From: Pseudarthrobacter oxydans
GTDB lineage: Bacteria > Actinomycetota > Actinomycetes > Actinomycetales > Micrococcaceae
Assembly: GCF_030812335.1 (NCBI RefSeq)
Contig: NZ_JAUSSN010000005.1
Span: 189,547 to 221,546, forward strand
Direction: 5' to 3'
DNA length: 32,000 nucleotides
A program made the translations under genes and the position numbers. Positions within the stretch are counted from its first letter, which is position 1, and each line of letters opens with the position of its first letter. The notes beneath the pieces were generated by a model, which was given only the letters and a program-made list of their open reading frames with translations, was not told the DNA's origin and did not search any database. Below, piece after piece: positions 13,673-26,796 of the stretch.

Positions 13673-14449
13673 TCACCGTCCGCCGTTTTCCCGGTGCCGC
13701 GGTTCTGCGCTCTCCCCGTAGGGGACCACGACGGTCCGGCGCGCTGTGCCGCCGTCGTCATAGGGCAGGGTCCTCACCGGAACGCCGTAGAGCTCCGTGA
13801 GTGAGGTGTCCGAGAGCAGCTCTTCCGCGGGGCCGGTCACTGTTCCGCTCCGGCTCAGGAGAACAGCGCTGTCGGCCAGGTACAGGGCGTGGTCCGGGTG
13901 GTGGGTGCTCAGGAGCAGGGCCATGCCGTCGGCCATCAACTCGCGCAGGAGTGACAGGACCCGCACCTGGTTCTTGAGATCGAGCCCGGTGGCAGGCTCG
14001 TCCAGCACCAGGACGGGACAGCCCGCGGCGATGGCCCGGGCTATCAGAATGAGTTGCTGCTCGCCGCCGCTGAGGGTAGGAAACCGCCGGTTGCGCAGTC
14101 CGGGTACGCCGACCCTGTCTATCGCGTCCAGGGCGGCGGCCCGGTCCCTGGCCCCAGGTGTCCGGAAGACCCCGACCTGCCGGGCCCGCCCCATCAGGAC
14201 CATGTCCAGGGCCGTGTACCCGAACGCGCTGCCGCGGGCCTGCGGCACGTACCCGGCACCGTCGGCGCGGTGGACCGTGCCCGCCGCCGGCGCCAGCAGC
14301 CCGGCCGCGCAGCGGACCAGCGTGGTTTTGCCGCTGCCGTTCGGACCCAGCACCGCGGTGGCCGTGCCTTGCGGTACCCGGAAGCTGACGTCCCGGAAGA
14401 CCCAGTCCTGCCGGGCGTAGCCGAATCCCACACCGTCCAGCTCAAGCAC
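13673..14449 (-). CDS. Chelate-type (FecE/BtuD-class) ABC transporter ATP-binding protein
   Basis: Walker A GPNGSGKTT, signature LSGGEQQ, Walker B VLVLDEP. The start is uncertain. GTG 14449 (M-LELDGVGFGY...) overlaps the permease stop by 8 nt. The alternatives are GTG 14467 and GTG 14524. Confidence 0.85.
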   Translation of the reverse strand: MLELDGVGFGYARQDWVFRDVSFRVPQGTATAVLGPNGSGKTTLVRCAAGLLAPAAGTVHRADGAGYVPQARGSAFGYTALDMVLMGRARQVGVFRTPGARDRAAALDAIDRVGVPGLRNRRFPTLSGGEQQLILIARAIAAGCPVLVLDEPATGLDLKNQVRVLSLLRELMADGMALLLSTHHPDHALYLADSAVLLSRSGTVTGPAEELLSDTSLTELYGVPVRTLPYDDGGTARRTVVVPYGESAEPRHRENGGR

Positions 14450-15548
14450 TTTCCCAGATCCTGTCACGGTTCCGGCGCAGCAGCAGGAAGAAAACGGGGG
14501 CGCCGATAAGGGCAGTGAGGACACCCAACGGAATTTCCCCGGCGGTAAGGGTGCGGGCCACGGTGTCGACCAGGATGATGTAGGCGCCGCCGAGAAGGAA
14601 GGACACCGGCAGGAGTACCCGATGGTCCGGGCCCACCCACATCCGCGCCAGATGCGGCACTACCAGGCCCACCCAGCTGACCGCCCCGCTGACTGCCACG
14701 GCGCCGGCGACAATCAGTGCCACCGCCACCAGCACCACCCAGCGCAGGGGGCGCGGTTTGACGCCCAGGGCGGCGGCATCCTCGTCGCCCAGTGAGAGCA
14801 CGTTGATGCGCCAGCGCAGCAATAGGAGCACTGCGGTGCCGCCCAATACAGGGACCAGCGCGACGGCGACCTTGGCGTACGTCGCGGTGGACAAGCTGCC
14901 AAGCAGCCAGAAAACGATGGCTGGCAGAGTGGTGTTGGGGTCCGCGAGGTAGGTCACCAGCGCCACCAAGGCTGAAAAGAACGAACCCGTAACGACACCG
15001 CCGAGCACGATCATCAGCATCGAGGAGCCGCCGCGGCCCGATGTGATCAGGATCAGCATTACGAGGGCTGCCATGCCGAAGAAGAAAGAACCCGCGACCA
15101 GCATGAACGGCCCCAGCCCGAGCAGGAGGGCCAGCGCTCCGCCGAACGAGGCCCCCGCGGATACCCCGATGATCTCCGGGCTGACCAGGGGGTTCCGGAA
15201 GATGGCCTGCAGGGCGGCACCGCCGATCGCCAGTCCGCCGCCCACCAGCAGCCCAAGCAGGATCCGGGGAAGCCGCACGAGCAGGACGACGTTCTGCTCG
15301 GTCTCGCTGGCTTCGAGCGGGAAGGGCACGATCTGTGCGGCGAGAATTTGGACGACGTGCCACACCGGCACGTGGAACCTGCCGAGCGCCAGCGCGAGCA
15401 GTCCGGCCGCGGTCAGTACGACGGCGGCGAGGGAAACGGGCCCCAGAACGGCAAGTGTCCGGCCGCGTACTCCCGGCCCGGGCCGGTGGGCGGTCCGGCC
15501 GGCCCGCGGGCCACGGCGCTTCAGCCGCGCTGGACTGGCCTCATCCAG
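14442..15548 (-). CDS. FecCD-family ABC transporter permease (iron/cobalamin/metal-chelate class)
   Basis: Highly hydrophobic, about 9-10 TM segments, typical FecCD C-terminus ...GEIPLGVLTALIGAPVFFLLLRR. ATG 15548 overlaps the SBP stop by 8 nt (ATGCTGGATGA) and is preferred over the track start at 15656. Confidence 0.85.
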   Translation of the reverse strand: MDEASPARLKRRGPRAGRTAHRPGPGVRGRTLAVLGPVSLAAVVLTAAGLLALALGRFHVPVWHVVQILAAQIVPFPLEASETEQNVVLLVRLPRILLGLLVGGGLAIGGAALQAIFRNPLVSPEIIGVSAGASFGGALALLLGLGPFMLVAGSFFFGMAALVMLILITSGRGGSSMLMIVLGGVVTGSFFSALVALVTYLADPNTTLPAIVFWLLGSLSTATYAKVAVALVPVLGGTAVLLLLRWRINVLSLGDEDAAALGVKPRPLRWVVLVAVALIVAGAVAVSGAVSWVGLVVPHLARMWVGPDHRVLLPVSFLLGGAYIILVDTVARTLTAGEIPLGVLTALIGAPVFFLLLRRNRDRIWESA

Positions 15549-16695
15549 CATTGAACTGTTGGTAATTGGCTGAACCGCTGTTCTCCGTGACCCACAGAAT
15601 CCGGTCCAGGGCGTCCTCCGAGGGCTCCTGGCCATAAAGGAACTGGAAGTATTCACGAACTTTGCCGCGCAGCGCTGACCGTTCCTGGGGAAAAGCGACT
15701 GCCGTGAGCCAGTGCCACATGAGCGGTGATTCCTGCCCTGGGGGGTCCCAGCGGTAGCCGCCGAGGGGAACCTTGTAGACGCGCCGCGAGCGGACAGCGG
15801 AAATGGTCTGCCACACCGGGTTCGAATAGATGTCCTGGGGCATGGCCTGGTCGAAATTGCCCAGCAGGATGACCTCGGGATCCCATCTCAGGACCTGCTC
15901 CACGTCCAGGCCCACCATGCCCGAACCGGTCAACGGGTCCTGGCCGGTGGCGGGGTTGGTGCCGCCGACAAGTTTGATGTAGAAGTCGTTGTACGTATCG
16001 GCCGCCGCGGCTTTGAGCCCGCCGGTGAACCGGTTGAAGTAGAGAATGCTGGGCCCCTCGGAGCCGCGGCCAGCCGCAAGTGACGAGATTTCTTCGAGTT
16101 CCTTGTCGCTGCGGGCCTTGATTTCGGTGGCCCGCTCGGGTTTGCCAAGCATGGCGGCGAACATCGTCACCCAGGCGTCCACGTCCTCCTGTCTGCCGGT
16201 ATTTTTCAGGCCGATCACCGTCAGCCCGGCGTTCTCGAGCGGCTCGATCAGTTGGGCGTCCGACCACTGGATCACCACGTCGGGGTTCAGGGCGCGCACG
16301 CTCTCCACGTTAGGAGTGAAGTCCTGCGTCGCAATGTCGTGGGGCAGTTCCAGCGCCTGCGGAAACATGGTTCCCATGATGCCGTCACGCATCGCGACCC
16401 AGGACGCGTTATGCATGGCACCCAGATGTTCGGCACTGCGGTCGACGGCGACCAGCAGCGACGCTGCCGGCATGGGTATGGTCACTACCCTGGTGACCGG
16501 CCTGGTGAAGGTGACTGTCTTGCCGCGCTGGTCCGTGATGCTGATGCGGTCAGTTGCCGCGGAACCGGTCCCGCCGGCGGCGGGCGAGGCTGCGGGGGAG
16601 AGGCCGGATGCTCCGCACCCGGTGAGCAGGGCTGCGGATCCTCCCGCCATCAACGCCTGAAGCACCGTGCGGCGGGTTGGATCGTCGACTCGCAT
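15541..16695 (-). CDS. Periplasmic-binding-protein class III (Peripla_BP_2, FecB/BtuF/CeuE-like) substrate-binding lipoprotein
   Basis: 384 aa from ATG 16695: MRVDDPTRRTVLQALMAGGSAALLTGC-GASG (twin-Arg plus lipobox). The body is typical of chelate-binding SBPs (...DVVIQWSD..., ...DPEVILLGNF...). The upstream 300 codons of track ORF 15541..17607 are antisense to the DUF6390-like gene and are rejected. Confidence 0.85.
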   Translation of the reverse strand: MRVDDPTRRTVLQALMAGGSAALLTGCGASGLSPAASPAAGGTGSAATDRISITDQRGKTVTFTRPVTRVVTIPMPAASLLVAVDRSAEHLGAMHNASWVAMRDGIMGTMFPQALELPHDIATQDFTPNVESVRALNPDVVIQWSDAQLIEPLENAGLTVIGLKNTGRQEDVDAWVTMFAAMLGKPERATEIKARSDKELEEISSLAAGRGSEGPSILYFNRFTGGLKAAAADTYNDFYIKLVGGTNPATGQDPLTGSGMVGLDVEQVLRWDPEVILLGNFDQAMPQDIYSNPVWQTISAVRSRRVYKVPLGGYRWDPPGQESPLMWHWLTAVAFPQERSALRGKVREYFQFLYGQEPSEDALDRILWVTENSGSANYQQFNAG

Positions 16696-16733
16696 GGTCT
16701 GACCCCCTGAGCGTAGGTTCTTCACAGGATCGC

Positions 16734-16758
16734 CCCGTTGACCAAGGGTGTCAACGGG
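16734..16758. promoter_or_regulatory. Perfect 9-bp inverted repeat in the ABC / DUF6390-like divergent promoter region (candidate operator)
   Basis: CCCGTTGAC-caagggt-GTCAACGGG. It contains TTGAC(-35-like) hexamers in both orientations. It lies 39 nt upstream of the SBP ATG and 79 nt upstream of the DUF6390-like ATG. Confidence 0.35.
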
Positions 16759-16836
16759 CCCGCGGTGCCGGGCCCCTTGTCGGGGTTCGGGGCCGGTGCT
16801 ACTTTCAGAGGACCTTGTGCAGAAGGTGGCCAGATC

Positions 16837-17610
16837 ATGATTCTTGACGGTGCCCAGTTGTTTGTCCGCTACGCCTACCCGCCCAATTCGAGGGGCAGCT
16901 GCGGGCCTCCCGACAGTGATGCGTTGTTGCATTACGGCCAGTCCGGTGTGACGGACCAAGGCCTCCGTGAACTGGCAAAAGGCTTCGCCGGGGCGTGGCC
17001 GTACCTGGAGCTGATTGCGGCCTCCACGGGAATCCGCGATCCCCTCGATTACCGCGTGGTGGAAGCCTACTGGGTGGGCAACAGCCTCCTGGACTCCGTC
17101 GGAATAACCAACATCGGCAACTCCATGGAGGACCGGTTCCGGGCCCGCACGGGACGGCAATTCCCGCACCTGGCGGAAGGGGTCCTGGCCGGCGGGGTTC
17201 CCCACCACAGTTTCCACGTCTTCGAGATCTACCCTTGGCTGGGCCTGCTCCACGATGACCGCCGCCACGCCACCGCCTTGAGTGTGCTCGACCGCTGCCG
17301 CATCCGTTGGGGCGAGGTGCTGGCGATCACCGGCGACGAGGCCGTGGTCCGGTCCCGGCCACTGGTGTGGGATGGAACCTCGCTGGCCGTCGGCGAATCC
17401 GTGGTCGAGTCCGCGAAATACGCGGTGAACGGATCCGGGTTCGTGGCCGGGCTGGCCGTGGGGGACGCGGTGTCGCTCCACTGGGATTGGGTCTGTGACC
17501 GGCTGTCCCCGCGTCAGCTGGAGCGGCTGAAGCACTTCACTGCGCGGCACCTGCGGATTGCCAACAGCGGCGTCGAACACCGCGGCGCCGCGATCGCGCT
17601 GGAACACTAG
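16837..17610 (+). CDS. Conserved hypothetical protein (DUF6390-like by recollection) with a HypC/HupF-like C-terminal module
   Basis: 257 aa from ATG 16837, preceded by GAAGGTGG at 7-nt spacing. The track start at 16738 lies inside the operator-like palindrome. MILDGAQLFVRYAYPPNSRGSCGPPDSDALL... The C-terminal part CRIRWGEVLAITGDEAVV...VGDAVSLHWDWVCDRLSPRQLER aligns by eye with HypC of this window (CLGIPGQVVELLEG...PGTWVLIHMGFALERVDPAGAER). Confidence 0.7.
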   Translation: MILDGAQLFVRYAYPPNSRGSCGPPDSDALLHYGQSGVTDQGLRELAKGFAGAWPYLELIAASTGIRDPLDYRVVEAYWVGNSLLDSVGITNIGNSMEDRFRARTGRQFPHLAEGVLAGGVPHHSFHVFEIYPWLGLLHDDRRHATALSVLDRCRIRWGEVLAITGDEAVVRSRPLVWDGTSLAVGESVVESAKYAVNGSGFVAGLAVGDAVSLHWDWVCDRLSPRQLERLKHFTARHLRIANSGVEHRGAAIALEH

Positions 17611-17621
17611 ACGGCGGCAGG

Positions 17622-17960
17622 CTAGGGGGACTGCGGCGCGGCACTGTCCGGGTCCTCCGGAGGCTCGACCCCGGTGGAGTCGCGGGGCGAGGACCCGCCC
17701 GAGGGCCGACCGGCCGGCGTCGCGTCTGTTCCGGTTTCTCTCCGCCCGGGCTCCAAACCCTCCTGCTTAACCACGTCCTCCCCCCGCCGTGTGGTGCTCT
17801 CGCCGACGCCCTCGGGCGCCCTTGCCGCGTCTTCGGGGGTCTCGTCGGACCCTGGCTGTGCGGGTTCCTTGAGCGGCGGCTCGCTGCCAAAGGCGCGGGC
17901 TGTGCCGGGGGAGGTTCCCTCGGCGGGATCCTTGGCCTCGGGCGAATTAGTCGGTGACAT
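17622..17960 (-). CDS. Hypothetical acidic, Pro/Glu/Gly-rich, probably intrinsically disordered protein at the tail of the hydrogenase operon
   Basis: 112 aa from ATG 17960, preceded by AAGGAG at 6-nt spacing. MSPTNSPEAKDPAEGTSPGT... The strand is ambiguous. ORF 17674..17979 (+) shares the same wobble position and has equal GC3. I prefer the minus strand because of the SD, the operon context, and the implausible 20% Ser in the + ORF. Confidence 0.45.
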   Translation of the reverse strand: MSPTNSPEAKDPAEGTSPGTARAFGSEPPLKEPAQPGSDETPEDAARAPEGVGESTTRRGEDVVKQEGLEPGRRETGTDATPAGRPSGGSSPRDSTGVEPPEDPDSAAPQSP

Positions 17961-18007
17961 GATGCTCTCCTTCATCTGATTTAGGTGGGGCGCGCTCTTA
18001 GTCTGGG

Positions 18008-18265
18008 CTAGCCGGCGTCGCTGTCGGCGTCCCTGGGCCGGCCCATCAGCTCCAGCCCGCCCATGGCCCGTTCCGCGCCCGCGGGATCCACCCGTTCCAG
18101 GGCGAAGCCCATGTGGATGAGGACCCAGGTGCCCGGCTCCAGCGGCCCCTCATCCAGCAGACCGATGTTGATCTTCCGCCGTACTCCGGCCACGTCCACG
18201 AGGGCCAACTGATTGCCGTAGCCTTCGAGCAGTTCGACGACCTGGCCCGGTATTCCAAGGCACAT
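18008..18265 (-). CDS. hypC: [NiFe]-hydrogenase assembly chaperone HypC/HupF family
   Basis: 85 aa. Diagnostic N-terminus MCLGIPGQVVEL and WVLIHMGFALERVD. Confidence 0.92.
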   Translation of the reverse strand: MCLGIPGQVVELLEGYGNQLALVDVAGVRRKINIGLLDEGPLEPGTWVLIHMGFALERVDPAGAERAMGGLELMGRPRDADSDAG

Positions 18266-18292
18266 GATGGGCTCTCCCTTGAGTTGCGCTGG

Positions 18293-18311
18293 GCCCGGGC
18301 TTTGCCCGGGC
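18293..18311 (-). other. Intra-operon GC hairpin between hupD and hypC
   Basis: GCCCGGGC-ttt-GCCCGGGC, an 8-bp all-GC stem with a 3-nt loop, in the 52-nt hupD-hypC spacer. It is followed on the minus strand by the hypC SD AAGGGAGAG. Confidence 0.3.
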
Positions 18312-18317
18312 GCGGGT

Positions 18318-18884
18318 CTAGACGGGCGTATGCTGCGCGATCAGTTCTTCGACGGCGGCCACGGCCTGCGGTACGGCCGCCGCCACCGGGCCGGTGAGGC
18401 CGATTCCCTCGCTGAGGTCGGCGGGGACGCAGCCGACGACGTAGGTCAGGGGAAGCTCACCGCCGAGCGAGCGGAGCCGCCCCAGCACGGCAACCGGGTC
18501 CATGCCGTGCGGGTCAAGGGACGCGGCGCCGTCGAGGTCTTCCGGGCGCACCCGGAGCACCCGGATGCGTCCCGGTGCCGCCTCCGGGTCCCCGCCGGAG
18601 TCCGCGCCCGGTCCTGTGCCCGAACCCGGGGGCACGGTATCCACCAGCACCAGGACGTCGACGCCGGCCAGCAGATCGTAGGCCAGGTGCATGCCGCGGA
18701 TTCCGTAGTCCACCGCCAGCACGCCGGGCGCCGCCGCGCCTGTGGCCACGGCCAGCCGCCGGGCGACCTCCGGGCCGAACCCGTCGTCGCGCAGGAACAT
18801 GTTCCCCACGCCTGCGACGAGGACGCGGGGTAGGCGATCCGCGGTCCCTGTGGCGGGACCGCCCGGCTGGAATGGTGACGTCAC
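18318..18884 (-). CDS. hupD: Hydrogenase maturation endopeptidase (HupD/HyaD/HybD family)
   Basis: VLVAGVGNMFLRDDGFGPEVARRL...VLVLVDTV...LDPHGMDP... (GxGNxxxxDDGxG, D, H metal ligands). The start is set at GTG 18884, which overlaps the TGA of the 39-aa ORF (GTGA). The longer track ORF (to 19193) is rejected. Confidence 0.85.
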   Translation of the reverse strand: MTSPFQPGGPATGTADRLPRVLVAGVGNMFLRDDGFGPEVARRLAVATGAAAPGVLAVDYGIRGMHLAYDLLAGVDVLVLVDTVPPGSGTGPGADSGGDPEAAPGRIRVLRVRPEDLDGAASLDPHGMDPVAVLGRLRSLGGELPLTYVVGCVPADLSEGIGLTGPVAAAVPQAVAAVEELIAQHTPV

Positions 18885-19000
18885 ATTCGCCGCATTTTCA
18901 GGTAGCGCTGGATATCGGGGACCGACCGAATCCCGGCGTATACGGCCGCCAGTGTCAGCGCCACGAGCAGGCCGACCGTGGCCATTCCTACTGTTTTCAT
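18881..19000 (-). CDS. 39-aa single-pass membrane micro-protein (absent from the ORF track; DUF6893-like by recollection)
   Basis: Hand translation gives MKTVGMATVGLLVALTLAAVYAGIRSVPDIQRYLKMRRM*. ATG 19000-18998 overlaps the TGA of the upstream 461-aa gene (ATGA), and its own TGA overlaps the hupD GTG (GTGA). It has one hydrophobic helix plus a basic C-tail. Confidence 0.6.
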   Translation of the reverse strand: MKTVGMATVGLLVALTLAAVYAGIRSVPDIQRYLKMRRM

Positions 19001-20382
19001 TGCGGGTCTTCCTCTCCATCCTCAAGCGGTTCAAGTTCTTCGGGTGCGTAGTAGAAGGACCGGCCGTAGCCTTCATGGAGGTCCGCGGCAGGGTCCTTTT
19101 CAAGCACCAGGCCCACGTGGGTGCTGCCATCGACGTCGAAGTGCACACTGGTGACCCGCCCGGTCTGCCCGGCGAAGAAGAGGTCCTGCGCATCGGCGCG
19201 CCGGCTCGGGTTCACCCTGACCCGGCTGCCGCGGGCCACCGGAACGCCGTTGATCAGAACGGCATCCAGGGACGGCTGGACGAGGGCTTCGGATTCCGGC
19301 GTCCACCAGGCGGGCGGGTCCCCTCCGCTGCCGGCGGCGCTTCCGCGGATGTCCGGGAATTCCACGGCGTGGGGATTGCGCAGGATCCCGTGCAGCTGCT
19401 GCAGTTCCTCCGGTGACATGGCCTCGCAATGGTCGATGATCGCGGCCGCGCGGGGATCGGTGGCGCGGGCCTCGGATTTTTCTTCCTCGGTCAGGGTCAG
19501 CACCCGCAAGGTGAGGATCTCGTCAATTTCGGTGGAATCATAGAGTGCCACCGGGCTTTCCGGGGCCACCGCGGGGTGGTCGTAGAGAATGATCGGCGAG
19601 ACCAGCAGCACGTCCGTCTGCCCTTCGGGACCGGCGAGGACGGGCCAGCAGCGGTGCTGCGAGCAGTCCGCAACGGCGTCCTGCGCCCATCCTGGCGGGT
19701 CCAGCAGGGAGAGGAAATCCGCGTCCCGCAGGCTGAGGAGCACGTGGGCGCCGATGAAGGACGCGGCGATGGCGTCCTGCCGGTTCCCCGGCTCCGCAGC
19801 GGGCTCCGCGGTGTTGGCGACGGAAACCCGTAACCGCTGGAGGCCGCGGGTCAGGCCGGTGGAGTCCAGCGTGAGTTCCCCGCGGAGCGCGTGGCGGCGC
19901 CGCACCAACCTGCCTGCCGTCCGGCCGGTGCCGTCGCCGAGGTCCTCAATCTCCTCGCTCGCCGGGATCTCCACCGGCAGCTGCAGCGCTTCCCGGGCCA
20001 GCTCCGCCACCGGAAACGGCCCCAGGGTGATCTCCTGTTCCACCGCCTCGTCCCAGCTCAGCCAGCGGGAGGCTCCGATGGTGAGTTCCGCCACCGGGCT
20101 GAAGTTCCCGGCGTCGTCCGCTTTTTCGGCGGTGCGGGTCTGCAACTGCAGGAAGCGCAGGTGGATTTCCACATCCGCGTGCGGTCCGGGACTCAGTAGG
20201 CAGTCGGCGGACATTGCCGGTTCCTCCCCGGCGCCGGCTTCCGCGGCCCCGGGCGGCCCGAGGATTCCAAACTGCCAGCGGGCCTGGTTCTTCTGCGAGG
20301 AAGCCCGGTAGGGGTACAGCAGGTAACCCTCGTAGAGGACGGCGTCGGCGACTGCCCTGGCCAGGCTCAGGCTCATGGTCAT
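18997..20382 (-). CDS. Conserved hypothetical protein of the hydrogenase operon, 461 aa, function unknown
   Basis: From ATG 20382 (ATGA overlap with the upstream stop): MTMSLSLARAVADAVLYEGYLLYPYRASSQKNQARWQFGILGP... with an acidic C-terminus ...YYAPEELEPLEDGEEDPQ. The N-terminal 135 codons of track ORF 18997..20787 are off-frame read-through of the upstream gene. Confidence 0.75.
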   Translation of the reverse strand: MTMSLSLARAVADAVLYEGYLLYPYRASSQKNQARWQFGILGPPGAAEAGAGEEPAMSADCLLSPGPHADVEIHLRFLQLQTRTAEKADDAGNFSPVAELTIGASRWLSWDEAVEQEITLGPFPVAELAREALQLPVEIPASEEIEDLGDGTGRTAGRLVRRRHALRGELTLDSTGLTRGLQRLRVSVANTAEPAAEPGNRQDAIAASFIGAHVLLSLRDADFLSLLDPPGWAQDAVADCSQHRCWPVLAGPEGQTDVLLVSPIILYDHPAVAPESPVALYDSTEIDEILTLRVLTLTEEEKSEARATDPRAAAIIDHCEAMSPEELQQLHGILRNPHAVEFPDIRGSAAGSGGDPPAWWTPESEALVQPSLDAVLINGVPVARGSRVRVNPSRRADAQDLFFAGQTGRVTSVHFDVDGSTHVGLVLEKDPAADLHEGYGRSFYYAPEELEPLEDGEEDPQ

Positions 20383-21035
20383 GGGAGCCGCTCTCCGCCC
20401 ACACCCGTCGCCGCAGCAGACAGCAGGGACTCCACCGTGGCCTCCCAGGACGTCAGTCCGCGCACCGCCTTGTACTGCGACAGGGCGGCCAGAGCATCCC
20501 GGTCCAGCCTGATCCAGCCCGCATTGGGGAAATACTGGTCCATCAGCCGGTGCCACGCCGCCACCGGGAGGCGGTACGAGGCTTCGAGGTGCCACGGGAC
20601 CTGCTCCACCCCGAATCCTGCCGGGCCTTTCGTGAAGACGGTGCCGGAGAACAGCAGCTCCAGCGGGATTTCGCCGTCCCGGAGGGCGTGCAGGTACTTC
20701 GACGCGGCGACGTCGAAGTCGAACGTGCAGGGCAGCGGCAGGTCCGCTTCGGTGCTGTCCGTGAATCCCTGCACCATGGTGCTGCACTGCAGCCAGAGGA
20801 ACGACTTAAGCGTGGTGGGCCAGCGGCCGCGCTCGCCGAACAGGTCCAGGAGCCCGCGTTCCTCCTCGTCCGCATATCCGCGGCGCTGCGGCAGGATCCG
20901 CACCTGGCAGCGCAATGCGATGGCGTGGATGGTGGCGCCGGTGGACTCGGTCAGCCGGAGCCGGGCGGTCAGTTGCGGCGCCGCGGCGTAGGGCTCCGGC
21001 TGGATGTCGACGACGGCGAACGTCAGTTCGGTCAT
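20379..21035 (-). CDS. Conserved hypothetical protein of the hydrogenase operon, 218 aa (DUF6084-like by recollection)
   Basis: From ATG 21035, preceded by GGGAGGA and overlapping the upstream stop (ATGA): MTELTFAVVDIQPEPYAAAPQLTARLRLTESTG... Confidence 0.75.
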   Translation of the reverse strand: MTELTFAVVDIQPEPYAAAPQLTARLRLTESTGATIHAIALRCQVRILPQRRGYADEEERGLLDLFGERGRWPTTLKSFLWLQCSTMVQGFTDSTEADLPLPCTFDFDVAASKYLHALRDGEIPLELLFSGTVFTKGPAGFGVEQVPWHLEASYRLPVAAWHRLMDQYFPNAGWIRLDRDALAALSQYKAVRGLTSWEATVESLLSAAATGVGGERLP

Positions 21036-21742
21036 GGGGATCCTCCCGCCAGGGATTGGCTTTTGTCCTCCGGCGCGGGCCGGCTGCGGCTGTCCAGCCG
21101 GGCGAAAAACGCGGTGAGTTGCTCGCGGGCCTCCTGTCCGCCGTCGAACCCGCGCCAGAGGCGGCGGAGCTGCCCCACGAGTTCGTAGCAGGCGTCCACG
21201 GGGACCAGATGGCAGTCGGCGCGGGATCGGTCCGGTCCGGGGCCGCGGATCAGCAGCGCCTCCGTGTCCGGTGCCGCCAGCGCAAGCGCCGGGTTTTGTG
21301 CCAGCACCGTGGCCCAGGCGCCCAGCGGAAGCTCGGACTCGGTGGCGCCGGCGGGGCCCGGGTAGAAGGCGACGGTCCGGTCCAGTTTGGAACTGTGGAA
21401 GAAGAATGCCAGTCCCACCGGAATTTCCAGCTCGTCCCACTGGCCGGGGCCCAGTTCAAAATCGGGAAAGGACAGGTACCGGTCCGGCACCGAACGGTAG
21501 CGCAGATGCGCCGTGGCGTCAGTGAACAGGAGGTAGCACGGCCGGCACGTGCACATCATGGCATGGCTCTCCAGGTCGACAATGTGCTGATGTTCCTCCG
21601 GAATGGGTTCCCCGCACATCTCGCAGCGCTCGCCGGCGGGCGGCGCGGGTGGGCGGGCCGCGATCCGGCGCAACAGGGTGACCGGCAGCCCGCCGGGGGC
21701 GGTCCGGCCCCGGCCGGTCTCGGTGCTGCCTCCGGGATTCAT
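21032..21742 (-). CDS. Conserved Cys-motif protein of the hydrogenase operon, 236 aa (DUF5947-like by recollection)
   Basis: MNPGGSTETG...GERCEMCGEPIPEEHQHIVDLESHAMMCTCRPCYLLF... (CxxC-19 aa-CxCxxC). ATG 21742 directly abuts the hhyE stop (TGAATG). Confidence 0.75.
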   Translation of the reverse strand: MNPGGSTETGRGRTAPGGLPVTLLRRIAARPPAPPAGERCEMCGEPIPEEHQHIVDLESHAMMCTCRPCYLLFTDATAHLRYRSVPDRYLSFPDFELGPGQWDELEIPVGLAFFFHSSKLDRTVAFYPGPAGATESELPLGAWATVLAQNPALALAAPDTEALLIRGPGPDRSRADCHLVPVDACYELVGQLRRLWRGFDGGQEAREQLTAFFARLDSRSRPAPEDKSQSLAGGSP

Positions 21743-22708
21743 TCAGGCGTCCTGGCCGGAAACCATCGGCACGGCCACGGACATCACGCCGGACCGTACC
21801 AGGAGCGGCAGCGGATCCAGGTGCAGGTTCCGGTCCTCCAGGCAGCTCCCGGCCTGCCGAACGTCGAAATGGGCGCGGCAGGAGGGGCAGCGCAGCAGGC
21901 CGCCGCCCGCGGGTGCCGCGAGGGCACGCTGGAGGGTGGCGCCGGCCATCGACGCCGTGCAGCGCGGGCAGTAGTCGCGGTAGGCGTAGACGTCCTGCCC
22001 GGTCCGGCAGGCGAGCACCGGGTACCCGCCGACAAGGAAGCCGGCGACGTCGCCGGGTTCCAGCCCGGCAATCTCCGGCACGGGCTCCCAGGATCCGGCG
22101 GCATGCTCGTGCCAGCGGCCGGCATCGCCCGGGCCGTGGCCTGCCGCGCCATCGGCCGGGTGGTTCAGCCGGATTAGCAGCGCGTCCACCGGAATCACGG
22201 CCGGAACTGCCGGACGGGATTCCTCCTCGACCACCTCGATGGCCGTGACCTCCGGCGCGGCTGACTCGATCGCCTCCTCGACGGCGAACTTGAGCGTGAC
22301 CGACGACGAGGGGCAGCCCTGGCAGGTGCCGAGCAGCCTCAGCCGCACGACCCCCGCGGGGCTGATGTCCAGGAGTTCCACGTTGCCGCCGTGCGAGCCG
22401 AGGTAGGGACGGACACTGTCCAGCGCGGCAGCCACCCGTGTTTCGACGTCCTGCGGGTGCAGCCCGTGGATCACCAGCAGGCTGGAGACCAGCTCGTCGG
22501 CGGTCAGCGCGTCCAGCGTCCCGCCGTCCAGTTGCCCGCGGTCATCGAGGATTTCCAGGATCCGGGCGAGCCCGGAACCGTAGAGTTCCGTCACCTGGCG
22601 GACCAGTTCCTCGGCGCGCCCGCGGGCCACCGCCCCGCCGGCTCCGAGGGCGTCGAGGAGGCTTTCGATCCGGTCGCCGGCCTGCGGCGGCCGGTCCTCG
22701 CCAGGCAT
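21743..22708 (-). CDS. hhyE: Putative iron-sulfur protein HhyE-type: Nfu/NifU C-terminal domain fused to a Rieske-fold-like domain
   Basis: 321 aa from ATG 22708, 5 nt after the hhyL stop. Nfu module VRPYLGSHGGNVELLDI...LLGTCQGCPSSSVTLKFAVEEAI. C-terminal module ...VLACRTGQDVYAYRDYCPRCTASM...LLRCPSCRAHFDVR. It occupies the same position after the large subunit as the mycobacterial HhyE/HucE genes. Confidence 0.85.
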   Translation of the reverse strand: MPGEDRPPQAGDRIESLLDALGAGGAVARGRAEELVRQVTELYGSGLARILEILDDRGQLDGGTLDALTADELVSSLLVIHGLHPQDVETRVAAALDSVRPYLGSHGGNVELLDISPAGVVRLRLLGTCQGCPSSSVTLKFAVEEAIESAAPEVTAIEVVEEESRPAVPAVIPVDALLIRLNHPADGAAGHGPGDAGRWHEHAAGSWEPVPEIAGLEPGDVAGFLVGGYPVLACRTGQDVYAYRDYCPRCTASMAGATLQRALAAPAGGGLLRCPSCRAHFDVRQAGSCLEDRNLHLDPLPLLVRSGVMSVAVPMVSGQDA

Positions 22709-22713
22709 GGCTG

Positions 22714-24507
22714 CTATTCGCCGGTCAGTGTCTGGGTGGGGGAGTGCAGCTTCTGCAGGGTCTGGCCGTTGCCCAGATACATATGCACCCCGCAGGGCAG
22801 GCAGGGGTCGAAGCTGCGGACGGTGCGCATGATGTCGATGCCCTTGAAGTGCTCGCGGTCGTTCTCCTCGAAGATCGGCTGCCCCTGGACGGCGTCCTCG
22901 TAGGGGCCGGCGGTTCCGGCGGAGTCCGTGGGGCTGGCGTTCCAGGGGGTCGGCGGGTAGGGATGGTAGTTGGCGATCTTCCCGTCGCGGATCACCATGT
23001 GGTGGGATAGGACGCCCCGCACGGCCTCTGTGAATCCGCAGCTGATGGCTTCGTCCGGAACCTCGAAGCTCTCCCACGTCTTGGTGCGCCCGGCGCGGAT
23101 CTCCTCGAGTGCCTTCTCCGCGAAGTGCAGTGCGGCGGCGGCGGCGTAGGCCTGGAAGTAGGTGCGGGCCCGGTTGCGTTCCAGGGTGTTGCTCCACTGC
23201 GGGATGTTCCACTCGAAGGAAACAGGACCTTTCAGCGCGGTCTTGGGCAGGTTGATCTGGACGCTCCGGCCGGTGGCCTTGATGTAGCCGATGTCCACCA
23301 GGCCGGCGAGCGCCGTCGCCCAGAGGCGGGCCAGCGGGCCGCCGCCGGTGTCCAGTGCCAGGTTGTCCTGGCCGTCAAACCAGCGCGGCGACATCACCCA
23401 GCTGTATTTCTCTGCGAGGTCCCGCTTTTGCGGCCGCGGGTTGGTGTGCTGGTTCCAGGGATGCCGGCGGTCCACGGGATTGCCCAGCGGATCGTGGGTC
23501 ACAAACATTTCCTGGCCTTCCCAGTCCTCATAGTAGGAGGAACCGAGCATGATCCGGATGCCCAGGTTGATCCGCACCAGGTCGGTAGTGACGAGTTTGC
23601 CGTCCACCACAACGCCGGGCGTGACGAACATCTTCCGGCCCCACTCGGTCATGTCCTTGTACTCGAAGTTGCAGTAGTCGGGATCCTGGAGCGAGCCCCA
23701 GCAGCCCAGCAGCGTGCGCCGCAGCCCCACCTGTTCGTAGCCCGGCAGGGCCTCGTAGAAGAAGTCGAACAGGTCGTCATGCATGGGGACGACCTTCTTC
23801 ATGAACTCCACGTAGCGCATGAGCCGGGTGATGTAGTCCGTCATCAGCTGGATGGTGGCAACCGTTCCCACTCCGCCCGGGTAAAGCGTGGACGGGTGAA
23901 CGTGGCGGCCCTCCATGAGGCAGAACATTTCGCGGGTTGCCCGGCTGACCTGCAGCGCCTCGCGGTAGAACTCCCCGGTGAACGGGTTGAGCGACCGCAT
24001 GATGTCGGCGATGGTCCGGTAGCCGTGGTCACCCTCATGCGGTGCACGGGTGTTCTCGGCCTTGGCCAGCACCCCGGGGTTCGTCTCCGAGACCATCTTT
24101 TCGCAGTAGTCGACGCCGACGAGGTTTTCCTGGAAGATGTTGTGGTCGAACATGTACTCGGCGGCTTCGCCGAGGTTCACGATCCATTCGCCGAGGTTTG
24201 GCGGCTTGACGCCGTAGGCCATGTTCTGGGCGTAGCAGGAGCATGTGGCGTGGTTGTCCCCGCAGATCCCGCAGATCCGGCTGGTGATGAAGTGCGCGTC
24301 CCGCGGGTCCTTGCCCTTCATGAAGATGGAGTATCCGCGGAAGATCGAGGAGGTGCTCTTGCACTCCACCACCTGTTTGTTCGCAAAGTCGATCTTGGTG
24401 TAGATGCCGAGGCTGCCGACGATCCTCGTGATGGGGTCCCACGCCATCTCCACCAGATTGTTGTCACCTGTTCCGCTTCCGGAAGGCATTGGAATCGTTG
24501 AGGTCAT
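22714..24507 (-). CDS. hhyL: [NiFe]-hydrogenase large subunit, group 1h (formerly group 5, high-affinity Hhy type)
   Basis: 597 aa. L1 motif TSRICGICGDNHA and L2 motif SFDPCLPCGVH, followed by the 22-aa tail MYLGNGQTLQKLHSPTQTLTGE, which is the protease substrate. ATG 24507 with AGGTGA at 5-nt spacing is preferred over GTG 24516. Confidence 0.97.
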   Translation of the reverse strand: MTSTIPMPSGSGTGDNNLVEMAWDPITRIVGSLGIYTKIDFANKQVVECKSTSSIFRGYSIFMKGKDPRDAHFITSRICGICGDNHATCSCYAQNMAYGVKPPNLGEWIVNLGEAAEYMFDHNIFQENLVGVDYCEKMVSETNPGVLAKAENTRAPHEGDHGYRTIADIMRSLNPFTGEFYREALQVSRATREMFCLMEGRHVHPSTLYPGGVGTVATIQLMTDYITRLMRYVEFMKKVVPMHDDLFDFFYEALPGYEQVGLRRTLLGCWGSLQDPDYCNFEYKDMTEWGRKMFVTPGVVVDGKLVTTDLVRINLGIRIMLGSSYYEDWEGQEMFVTHDPLGNPVDRRHPWNQHTNPRPQKRDLAEKYSWVMSPRWFDGQDNLALDTGGGPLARLWATALAGLVDIGYIKATGRSVQINLPKTALKGPVSFEWNIPQWSNTLERNRARTYFQAYAAAAALHFAEKALEEIRAGRTKTWESFEVPDEAISCGFTEAVRGVLSHHMVIRDGKIANYHPYPPTPWNASPTDSAGTAGPYEDAVQGQPIFEENDREHFKGIDIMRTVRSFDPCLPCGVHMYLGNGQTLQKLHSPTQTLTGE

Positions 24508-24533
24508 GTTCTTCACCTGTCTGGAAGTGGGTG

Positions 24534-25592
24534 CTACCAGGTGCGCCGGGCACCGGTAAGGAGCTCAGTACCGGGCCGGCGCCACTTGGGCTCCTGGTCC
24601 AGGGTGTGGGTGGTGATTCCACGCAGCGCCCTGATGGCCGAACCGTACGGGCGGATGGTGTTCGTTGAGAGCTTTCCGCCGGGAGGCTCATCCATAAAGG
24701 GCATGAACTTGTCCGGGAACCCCGGCATGGTGCAGCCGATGCAGATGCCGCCGACATTCGGGCAGCCGCCGACGCCGTTCATCCAGCCGCGTTTGGGGAC
24801 GTTGCACTTGACCACCGGGCCCCAGCAGCCGAGCTTGACGATGCATTTGGGGGAGCCATACTCGGTGGCGAAGTCACCCTGTTCGTAGTAGCCGGCCCGG
24901 TCACACCCCTCATGAACAGTCTGGCCGAAAAGCCACGTGGGCCGCAGTGCGTCGTCCAGCGGAATCATCGGCGCCTGGCCGGTGGCCTGATAGAGCAGGT
25001 AGGTCATTGTTTCGGAGAGATTGTCCGGCTGGATCGGGCACCCCGGAACGCAGACGATGGGGATCCCCGCCTTGGACTTCCAGTTGTAGCCGAGGTAATC
25101 CGGCACGCCCATGGCCCCGGTGGGGTTTCCCGCCATCGCGTGGATGCCGCCGTAAGTGGCGCAGGTCCCCGCCGCGATGATGGCGGTGGCCTTGGGGGCC
25201 AGGCGGTCGAGCCATTCGCTGGTCGTGATCGGCTGGCCGGTCTCGAGGTCGTTCCCGAATCCGCACCAGTAGCCGCCGGGGGCGTGGAGCTTTTCGTTGG
25301 GGATGGACCCCTCCACCACGAGGACAAACGGCTCCAGTTCGCCGCGGTCCGCCTTGCGGAACCACTCCAGGAAGTCGTCGGCCCCTTCCTGCGGTCCGCA
25401 TTCGAAGTCGATCAGGGGCCAATGCATGGCAATGCGCGGCAGGCCGGGCAGGGCGCCGAGGGCTATCTCCTCGACGCTGGGCTGCGTGGCCGCCGTCAGG
25501 GCCACAGAATCGCCGTCGCAGCTGAGCCCTGCGTTGATCCACAGCACATGGATAAGGGTTTCTTCGGCCTTCAGAGAAGTTTCAGTAGGCAT
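24534..25592 (-). CDS. hhyS: [NiFe]-hydrogenase small subunit, group 1h, without a Tat signal
   Basis: 352 aa. MPTETSLKAEETLIHVLWINAGLSCDGDSVALT... begins directly at the conserved core with no RRxFxK leader. Multiple FeS Cys motifs are present (GTCATYGG, CPIQPD, CIGCTMPGFPD). Confidence 0.95.
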   Translation of the reverse strand: MPTETSLKAEETLIHVLWINAGLSCDGDSVALTAATQPSVEEIALGALPGLPRIAMHWPLIDFECGPQEGADDFLEWFRKADRGELEPFVLVVEGSIPNEKLHAPGGYWCGFGNDLETGQPITTSEWLDRLAPKATAIIAAGTCATYGGIHAMAGNPTGAMGVPDYLGYNWKSKAGIPIVCVPGCPIQPDNLSETMTYLLYQATGQAPMIPLDDALRPTWLFGQTVHEGCDRAGYYEQGDFATEYGSPKCIVKLGCWGPVVKCNVPKRGWMNGVGGCPNVGGICIGCTMPGFPDKFMPFMDEPPGGKLSTNTIRPYGSAIRALRGITTHTLDQEPKWRRPGTELLTGARRTW

Positions 25593-25614
25593 TGTTGCCT
25601 CTTTCGGAGGCCCT

Positions 25615-26463
25615 TTAGGGGCTCAGTGTGTCCGTCAAAGATCCAGTCAAAGTGGCTGACCGGGAACTGGTTCCGCCGAGCCAGTCATACCAGCCGGCGA
25701 GGCCATCGCCGGTGGTGGCCGAAAGGACCAGGAAATCGGTGCGCGGATTGAGCTGACGGGCCCTGCGCCGGAACCCGTCGACGTCGAAATCAACGTAGGG
25801 GAGCAGATCCGACTTGTTGATGATCACCAGATCGGCTGCCCTGAACATGTGCGGGTATTTCTGCGGCTTGTCATCACCTTCCGTCACGGAAACGACTACT
25901 ACTTTCGCTGCTTCGCCGAGGTCAAACAGGGCGGGGCAGACCAGGTTGCCCACGTTCTCGATGAACACCGTGGACCCGGTTCCGGGATCCAGGGCGTCCA
26001 GCCCCCGCCGGAGCATGTCGGCGTCCAGATGGCAGCCGGCACCGGTGTTGATCTGGACGACGGGCCGTCCCACCGCACGGATGCGGTCCGCGTCCAGGGA
26101 CGTCTCCTGATCGCCCTCGACGACGCCGGCCTGCAACCGCTCGCCCAGGTCGGCGAGGGTGCGGACCAGCAGCGTGGTCTTGCCCGCCCCCGGGGAGCTC
26201 ATCACGTTCAGCGCGCGGATTCCCCGGCCTTCCAGCCAGCCCCGGTTCCTCGCCGCGAGCAGCTCGTTTTTCGCGAGCAGGCTCTGTTCCAGCGGGATGG
26301 TTTCCGGGTTGTGAACGTGCGGGTGCTCGTGGTCCGGACCGTGGTCGTGTGTGTGCCCGTGGGAATGGTCGTGCGGGTGCACGGGCAGCGGTGCGCTTGA
26401 GGATTCCTGCAGTGTGGAAACCCTGACGTTCGTTTCGTCGCCGCATCCGCATGTTGTACACAC
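25615..26463 (-). CDS. hypB: Hydrogenase nickel-incorporation GTPase HypB
   Basis: N-terminal MCTTCGCG high-affinity metal site, His-rich tract HPHDHSHGHTHDHGPDHEHPHVH, and P-loop SSPGAGKTTLL. GTG start with GGAGGTGG upstream. Confidence 0.95.
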   Translation of the reverse strand: MCTTCGCGDETNVRVSTLQESSSAPLPVHPHDHSHGHTHDHGPDHEHPHVHNPETIPLEQSLLAKNELLAARNRGWLEGRGIRALNVMSSPGAGKTTLLVRTLADLGERLQAGVVEGDQETSLDADRIRAVGRPVVQINTGAGCHLDADMLRRGLDALDPGTGSTVFIENVGNLVCPALFDLGEAAKVVVVSVTEGDDKPQKYPHMFRAADLVIINKSDLLPYVDFDVDGFRRRARQLNPRTDFLVLSATTGDGLAGWYDWLGGTSSRSATLTGSLTDTLSP

Positions 26464-26466
26464 TTG

Positions 26467-26796
26467 CTACGCCACCTCCACCGACATCAGCATGAGTTCG
26501 CGGCCGCTGAGGATTTCGACGTCGGCGCTTCCGCAGGGACACAGCAGGATCAGGTCGGCCGGTTCGAACTCGTCGTGGCAGTTTCTGCACCGGGCCAGGC
26601 CGCGCGGTTCGTCGATCATCAACTGGGCGCCGTCCAGAGGGGTGCCCGCGGATGCGACGTCGAAGCAGAAGCGCATTGCATCCGGGAGAACACCGGACAG
26701 GGGGCCCACCTGCACGTTGACCGCAATGACTTTCCGCTCGCCGGTTCGGTCGAGGACGGCTTCAACAAGGCTCTGGGTAATAGAGAGTTCGTGCAT
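26467..26796 (-). CDS. hypA: Hydrogenase nickel insertion protein HypA
   Basis: 109 aa from ATG 26796, preceded by GGAAGGAG. MHELSITQSLVEAVL (MHE nickel site) and zinc motifs CRNCHDEF...CPCGS. The rest of track ORF 26467..27123 is rejected. Confidence 0.92.
   Translation of the reverse strand: MHELSITQSLVEAVLDRTGERKVIAVNVQVGPLSGVLPDAMRFCFDVASAGTPLDGAQLMIDEPRGLARCRNCHDEFEPADLILLCPCGSADVEILSGRELMLMSVEVA

Follow-up and report, generated by a model that had tools for sequence, protein, structure and literature searches.

The DUF6390 gene and its product

The stretch of DNA analysed here, hereafter the window, comprises 32,000 nucleotides of Pseudarthrobacter oxydans (RefSeq assembly GCF_030812335.1, contig NZ_JAUSSN010000005.1, positions 189,547 to 221,546 of the forward strand) with a G+C content of 68-70%. 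Between an importer operon and a [NiFe]-hydrogenase operon it carries a gene for a two-domain protein of the family DUF6390, whose C-terminal domain is very probably homologous to the hydrogenase maturation protein HypC, and which may link the import of a metal or cofactor to hydrogenase maturation and expression. The gene and its two domains (with lengths in amino acids, aa) are as follows, the C-terminal domain having an oligonucleotide/oligosaccharide-binding (OB) fold.

16837..17610, plus strand: DUF6390 gene, 257 aa plus stop codon (Pfam PF19927, E 4.1e-91)
16837..17295, plus strand: N-terminal all-helical domain, residues 1-153 (AlphaFold2 model)
17296..17607, plus strand: C-terminal HypC-like OB-fold plus helix, residues 154-257 (hhalign, Foldseek, PDB sequence search, Pfam)

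Translation of this open reading frame (ORF) yields the 257-aa protein quoted in an earlier, sequence-only reading of the same DNA, and all peptides quoted there were located (YAYPPN starts at residue 12, HHSFHVF at 123, CRIRWGEV at 154 and VGDAVSLHWDWVCDRLSPRQLER at 208). The label DUF6390, given in that reading, is correct: the protein scores 305.2 bits against a gathering score of 25 for PF19927 and covers profile positions 4-241 of 244. The ORF has a G+C content at third codon positions of 0.81 and a ribosome-binding site, GAAGGTGG, 7 nt upstream, and the nearest public relative of the window, an Arthrobacter genome, shows 96% protein identity at this gene. A 688-aa ORF on the opposite strand (15541-17607, minus) is a spurious 5' extension of a substrate-binding-protein gene, which truly begins with the ATG at 16695 and continues with a lipoprotein-type signal sequence.

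Relationship of the C-terminal domain to HypC

The sequence-only reading had proposed that the C-terminal third of the protein is a HypC-like OB fold. Four sensitive tests (PDB sequence search, hhalign, structure comparison and Pfam) together point to HypC and make homology very probable. A profile built from 36 DUF6390 proteins, searched against 177,635 distinct PDB sequences (E<=10), gave a single match, the HypC/HupF protein 3d3r_A (E 0.75), in whose alignment GDvVSLHWDWVCDRL of DUF6390 is paired with GDYVLIHIGFVMNKI; with the C-terminal domain alone, HypC was again first (E 0.36). For hhalign, residues 150-257 of 102 representatives (29-58% identity to the window protein) were compared with a non-redundant alignment of 39 HypC sequences, which gave a probability of 92% and a P value of 6e-7 over a 26-column core, while reversed sequences gave P 0.07-0.1 and the N-terminal domain P 0.37. 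Within this high-confidence core, His215 in GDAVSLHWDW aligns with the HypC motif G-x-W-V-L-[IV]-H-x-G-F. In relaxed or global alignments Cys154 falls on Cys2 of HypC (RCRIRWGEV versus MCLGIPGQV), with an 11-residue insertion remaining, and His215 falls on His51 in the register given earlier; by alignment the internal Cys and the His thus occupy the Cys2 and His51 positions of HypC, as had been read from the sequence.

A comparison of an AlphaFold model of this region with HypC structures, which had been suggested as a check, supports the same relationship. The isolated domain is modelled by AlphaFold2 with a predicted local confidence (pLDDT) of 84 as seven strands followed by a helix, and its first Foldseek match in the PDB is the HypC of T. 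kodakarensis (2z1c_B; E 0.013, probability 1.0, template-modelling score 0.63 normalised on HypC). The domain-only model is needed for this result, as the full-length model retrieves only generic OB folds (S17, exosome and SSB, E>=0.06). In a Pfam scan of 65 diverse members of the family, HupF_HypC came second after DUF6390, being matched by 10 of the 65 below threshold (best E 0.0045), and the runner-up family by three. One DUF6390 member carries the JGI label 'hydrogenase maturation factor'. A direct BLASTP comparison of DUF6390 with the neighbouring HypC gave no meaningful alignment, and the window protein and both its halves matched DUF6390 alone when searched against Pfam and NCBIfam at E<=10, with no hit to PF01455 or TIGR00074.

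The window protein is a member of DUF6390 and does not belong to the HypC family in the strict sense, because it misses the thresholds of the family's hidden Markov models (HMMs), its Cys is internal and it has two domains. Neither the whole protein nor its C-terminal 104 aa reaches the HypC/HupF/HybG models PF01455 and TIGR00074. HypC proteins are single domains of ~70-110 aa with a Cys directly after the initiator Met, whereas the aligned Cys is here residue 154, behind a folded helical domain, in a protein of 257 aa. The OB-fold beta-barrel and the following C-terminal alpha-helix of HypC are found in the AlphaFold2 model and by Foldseek, and the conserved His (His51 of E. coli HypC, which we take to be a functional residue) is represented by His215. 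In HypC the Cys2 thiolate, together with Cys41 of HypD, ligates the Fe(CN)2CO group, which is carried to the large subunit (PMC11565642; PMC10847431).

The N-terminal domain and the conserved Cys and His residues

The AlphaFold2 model of the full-length protein (pLDDT 84.5, predicted template-modelling score 0.85) shows helices in residues 5-154, beta structure in 157-222 and a long helix in 225-246. The earlier reading could name no relative of the N-terminal domain, and it indeed matches neither a PDB structure (Foldseek of the full-length model) nor a Pfam family other than DUF6390 (E<=10). Six Cys and His residues, spread over both domains, stand out by their conservation.

16900-16902, plus strand: Cys22 codon (N-terminal domain, invariant)
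17206-17208, plus strand: His124 codon (N-terminal domain, invariant)
17215-17217, plus strand: His127 codon (N-terminal domain, 90% conserved)
17296-17298, plus strand: Cys154 codon (C-terminal domain)
17479-17481, plus strand: His215 codon (C-terminal domain)
17494-17496, plus strand: Cys220 codon (C-terminal domain)

Among 65 sequences with 29-55% identity to the window protein, Cys22, His124, Cys154 and His215 are invariant and His127 and Cys220 conserved in at least 90%; in the 102 representatives all six are 82-98% conserved. The set is also kept in every regulator-fused, transporter-fused and Patescibacteria member.

Linkage to hydrogenase genes

The family is large, with 4,461 clusters at 90% identity matching the window protein and 1,662 clusters at 50% identity matching the DUF6390 profile, while the most conserved peptide motifs occur in more than 570 species genomes. 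Gene order was compared in 80 genome loci of close relatives and in 80 further metagenome loci (L099-L178); as the 65-sequence alignment was too diverse for the metagenome scan, a subset of it was used there. The locus in the window contains the following operon, which is listed in transcription order and was annotated by Pfam and NCBIfam scans and, for HypA, by tblastn.

17622..26796, minus strand: group-1h-type [NiFe]-hydrogenase operon
26470-26796, minus strand: hypA, first in transcription order (tblastn)
25615-26463, minus strand: hypB
24534-25592, minus strand: hhyS, small subunit
22714-24516, minus strand: hhyL, large subunit
21743-~22720, minus strand: NifU/Rieske protein
21032-21742, minus strand: DUF5947 protein
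20379-~21035, minus strand: DUF6084 protein
18997-~20380, minus strand: ~460-aa protein without a Pfam or NCBIfam family
18318-~18830, minus strand: maturation protease
18008..18265, minus strand: canonical HypC of 85 aa starting Met-Cys (Pfam HupF_HypC E 3.2e-22; TIGR00074)
17622-17975, minus strand: Pro/Glu/Gly-rich low-complexity ORF of 117 aa, directly after hypC, at the operon end

A NicO nickel permease is encoded beyond hypA, and hypD, hypE and hypF were not found within the window. The window HypC has HypC matches in the PDB down to E 2e-10. Its gene had been placed about 400 nt from the DUF6390 gene, and this distance stands (398 nt); the earlier account omitted that hypC lies on the minus strand. 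The DUF6390 gene and the last ORF of the operon are in fact convergent, with stop codons 11 nt apart (window positions 17608-17624), and since no terminator-like hairpin was found between these stops the two transcripts would overlap.

The association with [NiFe]-hydrogenase loci is tight beyond the window, with hypC within 10 kb of DUF6390 in 64 of the 80 genome loci and hydrogenase subunits present in 50-55 of them. Micrococcaceae loci are arranged as in the window, and in other Actinomycetota hypC lies immediately upstream of DUF6390 on the same strand, an order (hypC before DUF6390) which recurs across Actinomycetota, Chloroflexota and Patescibacteria. Among the metagenome loci, hypC lies upstream in 20 of the 39 with enough upstream sequence. 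A Thermomicrobiales-like contig has hypA-hypB-hypC-DUF6390 with overlapping stop and start codons, followed by a NikA-like ATP-binding cassette (ABC) system; Dermatophilaceae-like loci have hypC-DUF6390-Fbp-like ABC-hypA-hypB; and Mycobacterium has hypC-hypF-DUF6390-x-SIS-hypE-hypC-hypD. This last order agrees with the published order of the M. smegmatis hhy cluster, where the orthologue, by its position probably MSMEG_2710 but unconfirmed by sequence, is indicated by synteny with Mycobacterium sp. SWH-M5 and by matches in M. goodii and other species. DUF6390 is confined neither to group 1h nor to aerobes: it is also found in Huc-like 2a clusters, and in Patescibacteria and others as hypC-EamA-DUF6390 beside small group-3-like hydrogenase subunits.

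Several further observations concern these clusters. The ~460-aa protein is conserved in hhy clusters (39 of the 80 loci by tblastn, with counterparts of 446-475 aa in L089 and L078), and the 596-aa ORF listed for it in the window runs into DUF6084, its 5' end probably being placed too far upstream. The 117-aa Pro/Glu/Gly-rich ORF is detectable in 21 of the 80 related loci, and a mycobacterial DUF6390 (P0226) bears a C-terminally fused, disordered acidic tail resembling it. Three loci (L070, L071 and L076) each contain two HypC paralogues in the sequence fetched, falling into two sequence types (…IHMGFA… and …IHSGFA…). In the hhy cluster of Mycobacterium sp. SWH-M5 the gene after DUF6390 (L089:11074-11814) encodes a 246-aa protein without any family above cut-off, the last ~50 residues of which (…CITCSDEARLAEVV…VNDLVLVHGGVA) match HupF_HypC weakly (E 3.5e-5, 24.3 bits against a cut-off of 28.5 bits). 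It was considered as a relative of DUF6390 and rejected, as hhalign against DUF6390 was negative; it is a second, unrelated type of protein with an internal HypC-like module.

Adjacent transporters and fused forms

On its other side the DUF6390 gene of the window is divergent from an importer operon, identified by the Pfam families Peripla_BP_2, FecCD and ABC_tran; the NCBIfam matches of its substrate-binding protein are weak, to iron-chelate or heme-binding proteins.

13673..16695, minus strand: FecCD-type ABC importer operon
15541-16695, minus strand: substrate-binding protein
14442-15656, minus strand: permease
13673-14524, minus strand: ATPase
16696..16836, no strand assigned: divergent intergenic region between the ABC operon and DUF6390 (alignment of 24 loci)

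A FecCD-type importer adjoins DUF6390 in 48 of the 80 genome loci and an Fbp/PotD-like importer is present in 22, sometimes within the operon between DUF6390 and hypA-hypB. In the metagenome sample a transporter is adjacent in 22 of the 28 loci with both flanks present, and the types over all 80 loci are EamA (38), NikA-like (10) and a few Fbp-like or NicO. Adjacent SBP_bac_5 proteins have the nickel-binding NikA as best NCBIfam match, below cut-off (E 5e-45 and 1e-43). An EamA gene, of the drug/metabolite transporter (DMT) type, stands between hypC and DUF6390 in L095-L097 and in the 38 metagenome loci, in Patescibacteria and other lineages; we know of no established role of a DMT transporter in hydrogenase clusters.

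In the intergenic region of the window two elements are conserved across Micrococcaceae and Propionibacteriales, both of which may be promoters. The first, TGTCAAC, contains TTGACA in its reverse complement and faces the ABC operon; the second, CTTGTC-N~18-GGTGCTACTTTCA, lies upstream of DUF6390. In the window TGTCAAC sits in an 8-bp inverted repeat (CCGTTGAC-N7-GTCAACGG), the left arm of which is not conserved. A search of 16696-16836 for a metal-regulator operator thus returned these promoter-like elements and no conserved palindrome, and a strict sigma-70 consensus scan of the same region found no promoter; no terminator was found there either.

DUF6390 also occurs fused to other domains. 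Among the top 150 representatives, fusions were found to GntR, MarR, PadR (twice, with identical architecture) and XRE-type helix-turn-helix (HTH_3) DNA-binding domains and to EamA (P0197). The MarR and PadR fusions are real, since each cluster has 15-17 members on dozens of contigs. The regulator fusions lie in hydrogenase and transporter contexts.

DUF6390-MarR: Huc-like cluster, immediately following hypC
PadR-DUF6390: head of an operon with a NikA-like ABC importer, then hhySL
GntR-DUF6390: near a hydrogenase, overlapping the beginning of an Fbp-like ABC operon
XRE-DUF6390: flanked by hypC and a NikA-like ABC system

The family thereby shows the hallmark of the sensor domains of one-component transcription factors, namely one domain fused to several unrelated DNA-binding domains. 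Two sorts of candidate fusion were discarded: P0209 (HypC-DUF6390) looks like a frameshift artefact, and representatives aligned to only a portion of the profile (P0125, P0151 and others) lack a second domain and were taken as frameshifted or fragmentary.

A possible link between metal import and hydrogenase maturation

DUF6390 may be a metal or cofactor chaperone or sensor that ties import to the maturation and expression of hydrogenase, an explanation which we favour and to which the architectures and gene neighbourhoods described above give about an even chance. The protein would be a cytoplasmic two-domain accessory of [NiFe]-hydrogenase systems, in which residues 154-257 represent a diverged, internalised HypC consisting of an OB barrel, an 11-residue hairpin insertion and a helix. 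Cys154 and His215 would be the counterparts of the Fe-binding Cys2 and of His51 of HypC, and the helical N-terminal domain would cap Cys154 and add the invariant Cys22 and His124 as well as His127, with Cys220 placed on the barrel. This Cys/His set would most likely make up a ligand-binding site where the two domains meet. A module binding a small ligand is suggested by the settings in which DUF6390 occurs: alone, joined to DNA-binding domains of four unrelated families, and joined to transporters or encoded next to them. That the ligand is a metal ion is suggested by the HypC ancestry, the invariant Cys/His set and the constant proximity to hyp genes and metal-type importers. Nickel, iron or an iron cofactor intermediate may be considered, and by binding or sensing it the module would couple metal import to hydrogenase maturation, by a flow of information or of cargo in this presumed direction. 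The stand-alone form, as in the window, would be co-produced with HypC and the neighbouring importer and act as chaperone or sensor; the GntR-, MarR-, PadR- and XRE-fused forms would provide the effector domains of one-component regulators that act on hydrogenase and transporter operons; and the EamA-fused form would be the cytoplasmic domain of a transporter. A related reading, according to which DUF6390 is a HypC-derived metal- or cofactor-sensing domain that couples Ni/Fe import and hydrogenase-operon transcription to the state of the maturation machinery, including that of the Hhy and Huc enzymes with which soil Actinomycetota oxidise atmospheric H2, is tentative and we consider it possible rather than probable.

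Several points weigh against this explanation. The statistics for homology to HypC are modest when taken singly (PDB E 0.36-0.75, Foldseek E 0.013, an hhalign core of 26 columns), the pairing of Cys154 with Cys2 belongs to the low-confidence part of the hhalign alignment, and the clustering of the conserved Cys and His residues in one site is putative. The window DUF6390 itself has no DNA-binding domain. The transporters next to DUF6390 come from four unrelated families (the FecCD, Fbp and NikA-like ABC types and EamA) with putative substrates, and nickel is not singled out because the window already has a NicO nickel permease. About ten Pseudonocardiales loci (L057-L065 and L067) carry DUF6390 without a hydrogenase or transporter within 10 kb. 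Finally, as the earlier reading had supposed, the family is functionally undescribed, literature searches having returned no account of DUF6390 or PF19927. In one of the orphan loci, L062, the genes neighbouring DUF6390 encode two sigma factors of the ECF type and one DUF6400 protein.

The alternative that survives best, although we judge it improbable, is that DUF6390 acts as a non-canonical HypC/HupF chaperone which binds the large-subunit precursor, or carries Fe(CN)2CO on Cys154, and so stabilises it during maturation in air. It would account for a HypC-like domain in which Cys2 and His51 have Cys and His counterparts, for a gene that follows hypC and in Mycobacterium lies among hypF, hypE and hypD, and for the abundance of DUF6390 in O2-tolerant group 1h and Huc-like clusters. 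There is also a precedent in HupF of Rhizobium leguminosarum, which is paralogous to HypC, has an additional region at its C-terminus and is reported to protect HupL under O2 (PMC3534401). However, HypC needs its Cys2 to reach into HypD and the large-subunit site (PMC11565642), whereas Cys154 is internal and capped by 153 residues, and canonical HypC is always co-present. The occurrence of DUF6390 in anaerobic lineages is left unexplained, as is its place beside the small group-3-like hydrogenases of Patescibacteria, and fusions to four HTH families and EamA, with a near-constant adjacency of transporters, would not be expected. The sequence-only reading had leaned towards HupF-like binding or protection of the large subunit during O2-exposed maturation; as stated, this is not supported, because the DNA-binding and DMT fusions and the transporter adjacency signal ligand binding or sensing rather than a dedicated large-subunit chaperone, and because the family extends beyond group 1h and beyond aerobes.

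It is quite unlikely that DUF6390 binds an iron-sulfur cluster through its Cys and His residues and serves hydrogenase expression or assembly by sensing redox state or O2 or by assisting electron transfer. The conserved residues available would be three Cys and two to three His, the HTH fusions resemble known Fe-S sensor regulators and NifU/Rieske proteins are encoded in the same clusters, but the ligands are spread over 200 residues without a CxxC-type motif, the HypC ancestry indicates a mononuclear Fe or thiolate site, and importer adjacency and the EamA fusion remain unexplained. Equally unlikely is that the resemblance to HypC is convergent, a generic small OB barrel plus helix in an unrelated protein such as an enzyme acting on the transporter substrate, since the failure of BLASTP, the missing Pfam HupF_HypC match of the window protein even at E<=10 and the generic OB matches of the full-length model are outweighed by four independent database-wide searches that single out HypC over other OB families, an hhalign signal that disappears in reversed controls, the alignment of the functional Cys and His, and a synteny with hypC that holds across phyla.

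The favoured explanation, that of a chaperone or sensor, bears on gaps in the understanding of the high-affinity, O2-insensitive hydrogenases Hhy and Huc, through which soil bacteria take up atmospheric H2 and which serve as targets for biocatalysis, and whose full sets of maturation and regulatory genes are still incomplete. A 2026 study of M. smegmatis reports that the huc regulators remain unidentified (PMC13098282), and where the iron of the Fe(CN)2CO group comes from is described as unresolved (PMC10847431). DUF6390 travels with hypC in at least three phyla and several hydrogenase groups, and its fusions yield testable hypotheses on both the regulators and the iron source. Were the sensing-domain reading true, it would supply a missing class of regulator and a missing step of metal delivery. 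DUF6390 would also be the first known reuse of the HypC fold as an internal domain. What is likely to be new here is this reuse within a protein that would be sensor- or chaperone-like.

Comparison with known systems

HypC, HybG and HupF (PF01455, TIGR00074) are the closest matches to DUF6390 in both sequence and structure. They share with it an OB barrel that precedes a C-terminal helix, a Cys where strand 1 begins, a His in G-D-x-V-[LS]-x-H and a location among [NiFe]-hydrogenase cluster genes. DUF6390 differs in that its Cys is residue 154 and not the processed N-terminus, in that another residue stands in CRIRWG where MC[LIV][GA][LIV]P has its conserved Pro, in its additional 11-residue hairpin, its helical domain of 153 residues and its further invariant Cys and His residues, in scoring below the family HMM thresholds, and in co-occurring with a canonical HypC. 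HupF of R. leguminosarum resembles DUF6390 more specifically as a HypC-derived module with an added region, encoded near hydrogenase genes in aerobes; however, HupF retains the N-terminal Cys and its extension is C-terminal, while DUF6390 is also found in anaerobic lineages and in fusions to HTH domains and a transporter.

Nickel metalloregulators and chaperones (NikR, HypA/HypB and SlyD; review PMC7055735) have in common with DUF6390 a His/Cys-rich putative site and a genomic linkage to nickel-type importers (NikA-like substrate-binding proteins) and hydrogenase maturation genes. DUF6390 has no homology to them in Pfam and NCBIfam scans, and its binding of nickel is putative.

Mop/TOBE is a small OB-type module that binds oxyanions (molybdate) and occurs as a stand-alone protein, fused to an HTH domain (ModE) and fused or adjacent to transporters. 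DUF6390 has the same three-way distribution, a functional analogy only, with no sequence or structural relationship claimed, and it differs from Mop/TOBE in its candidate Cys/His ligands and its extra helical domain.

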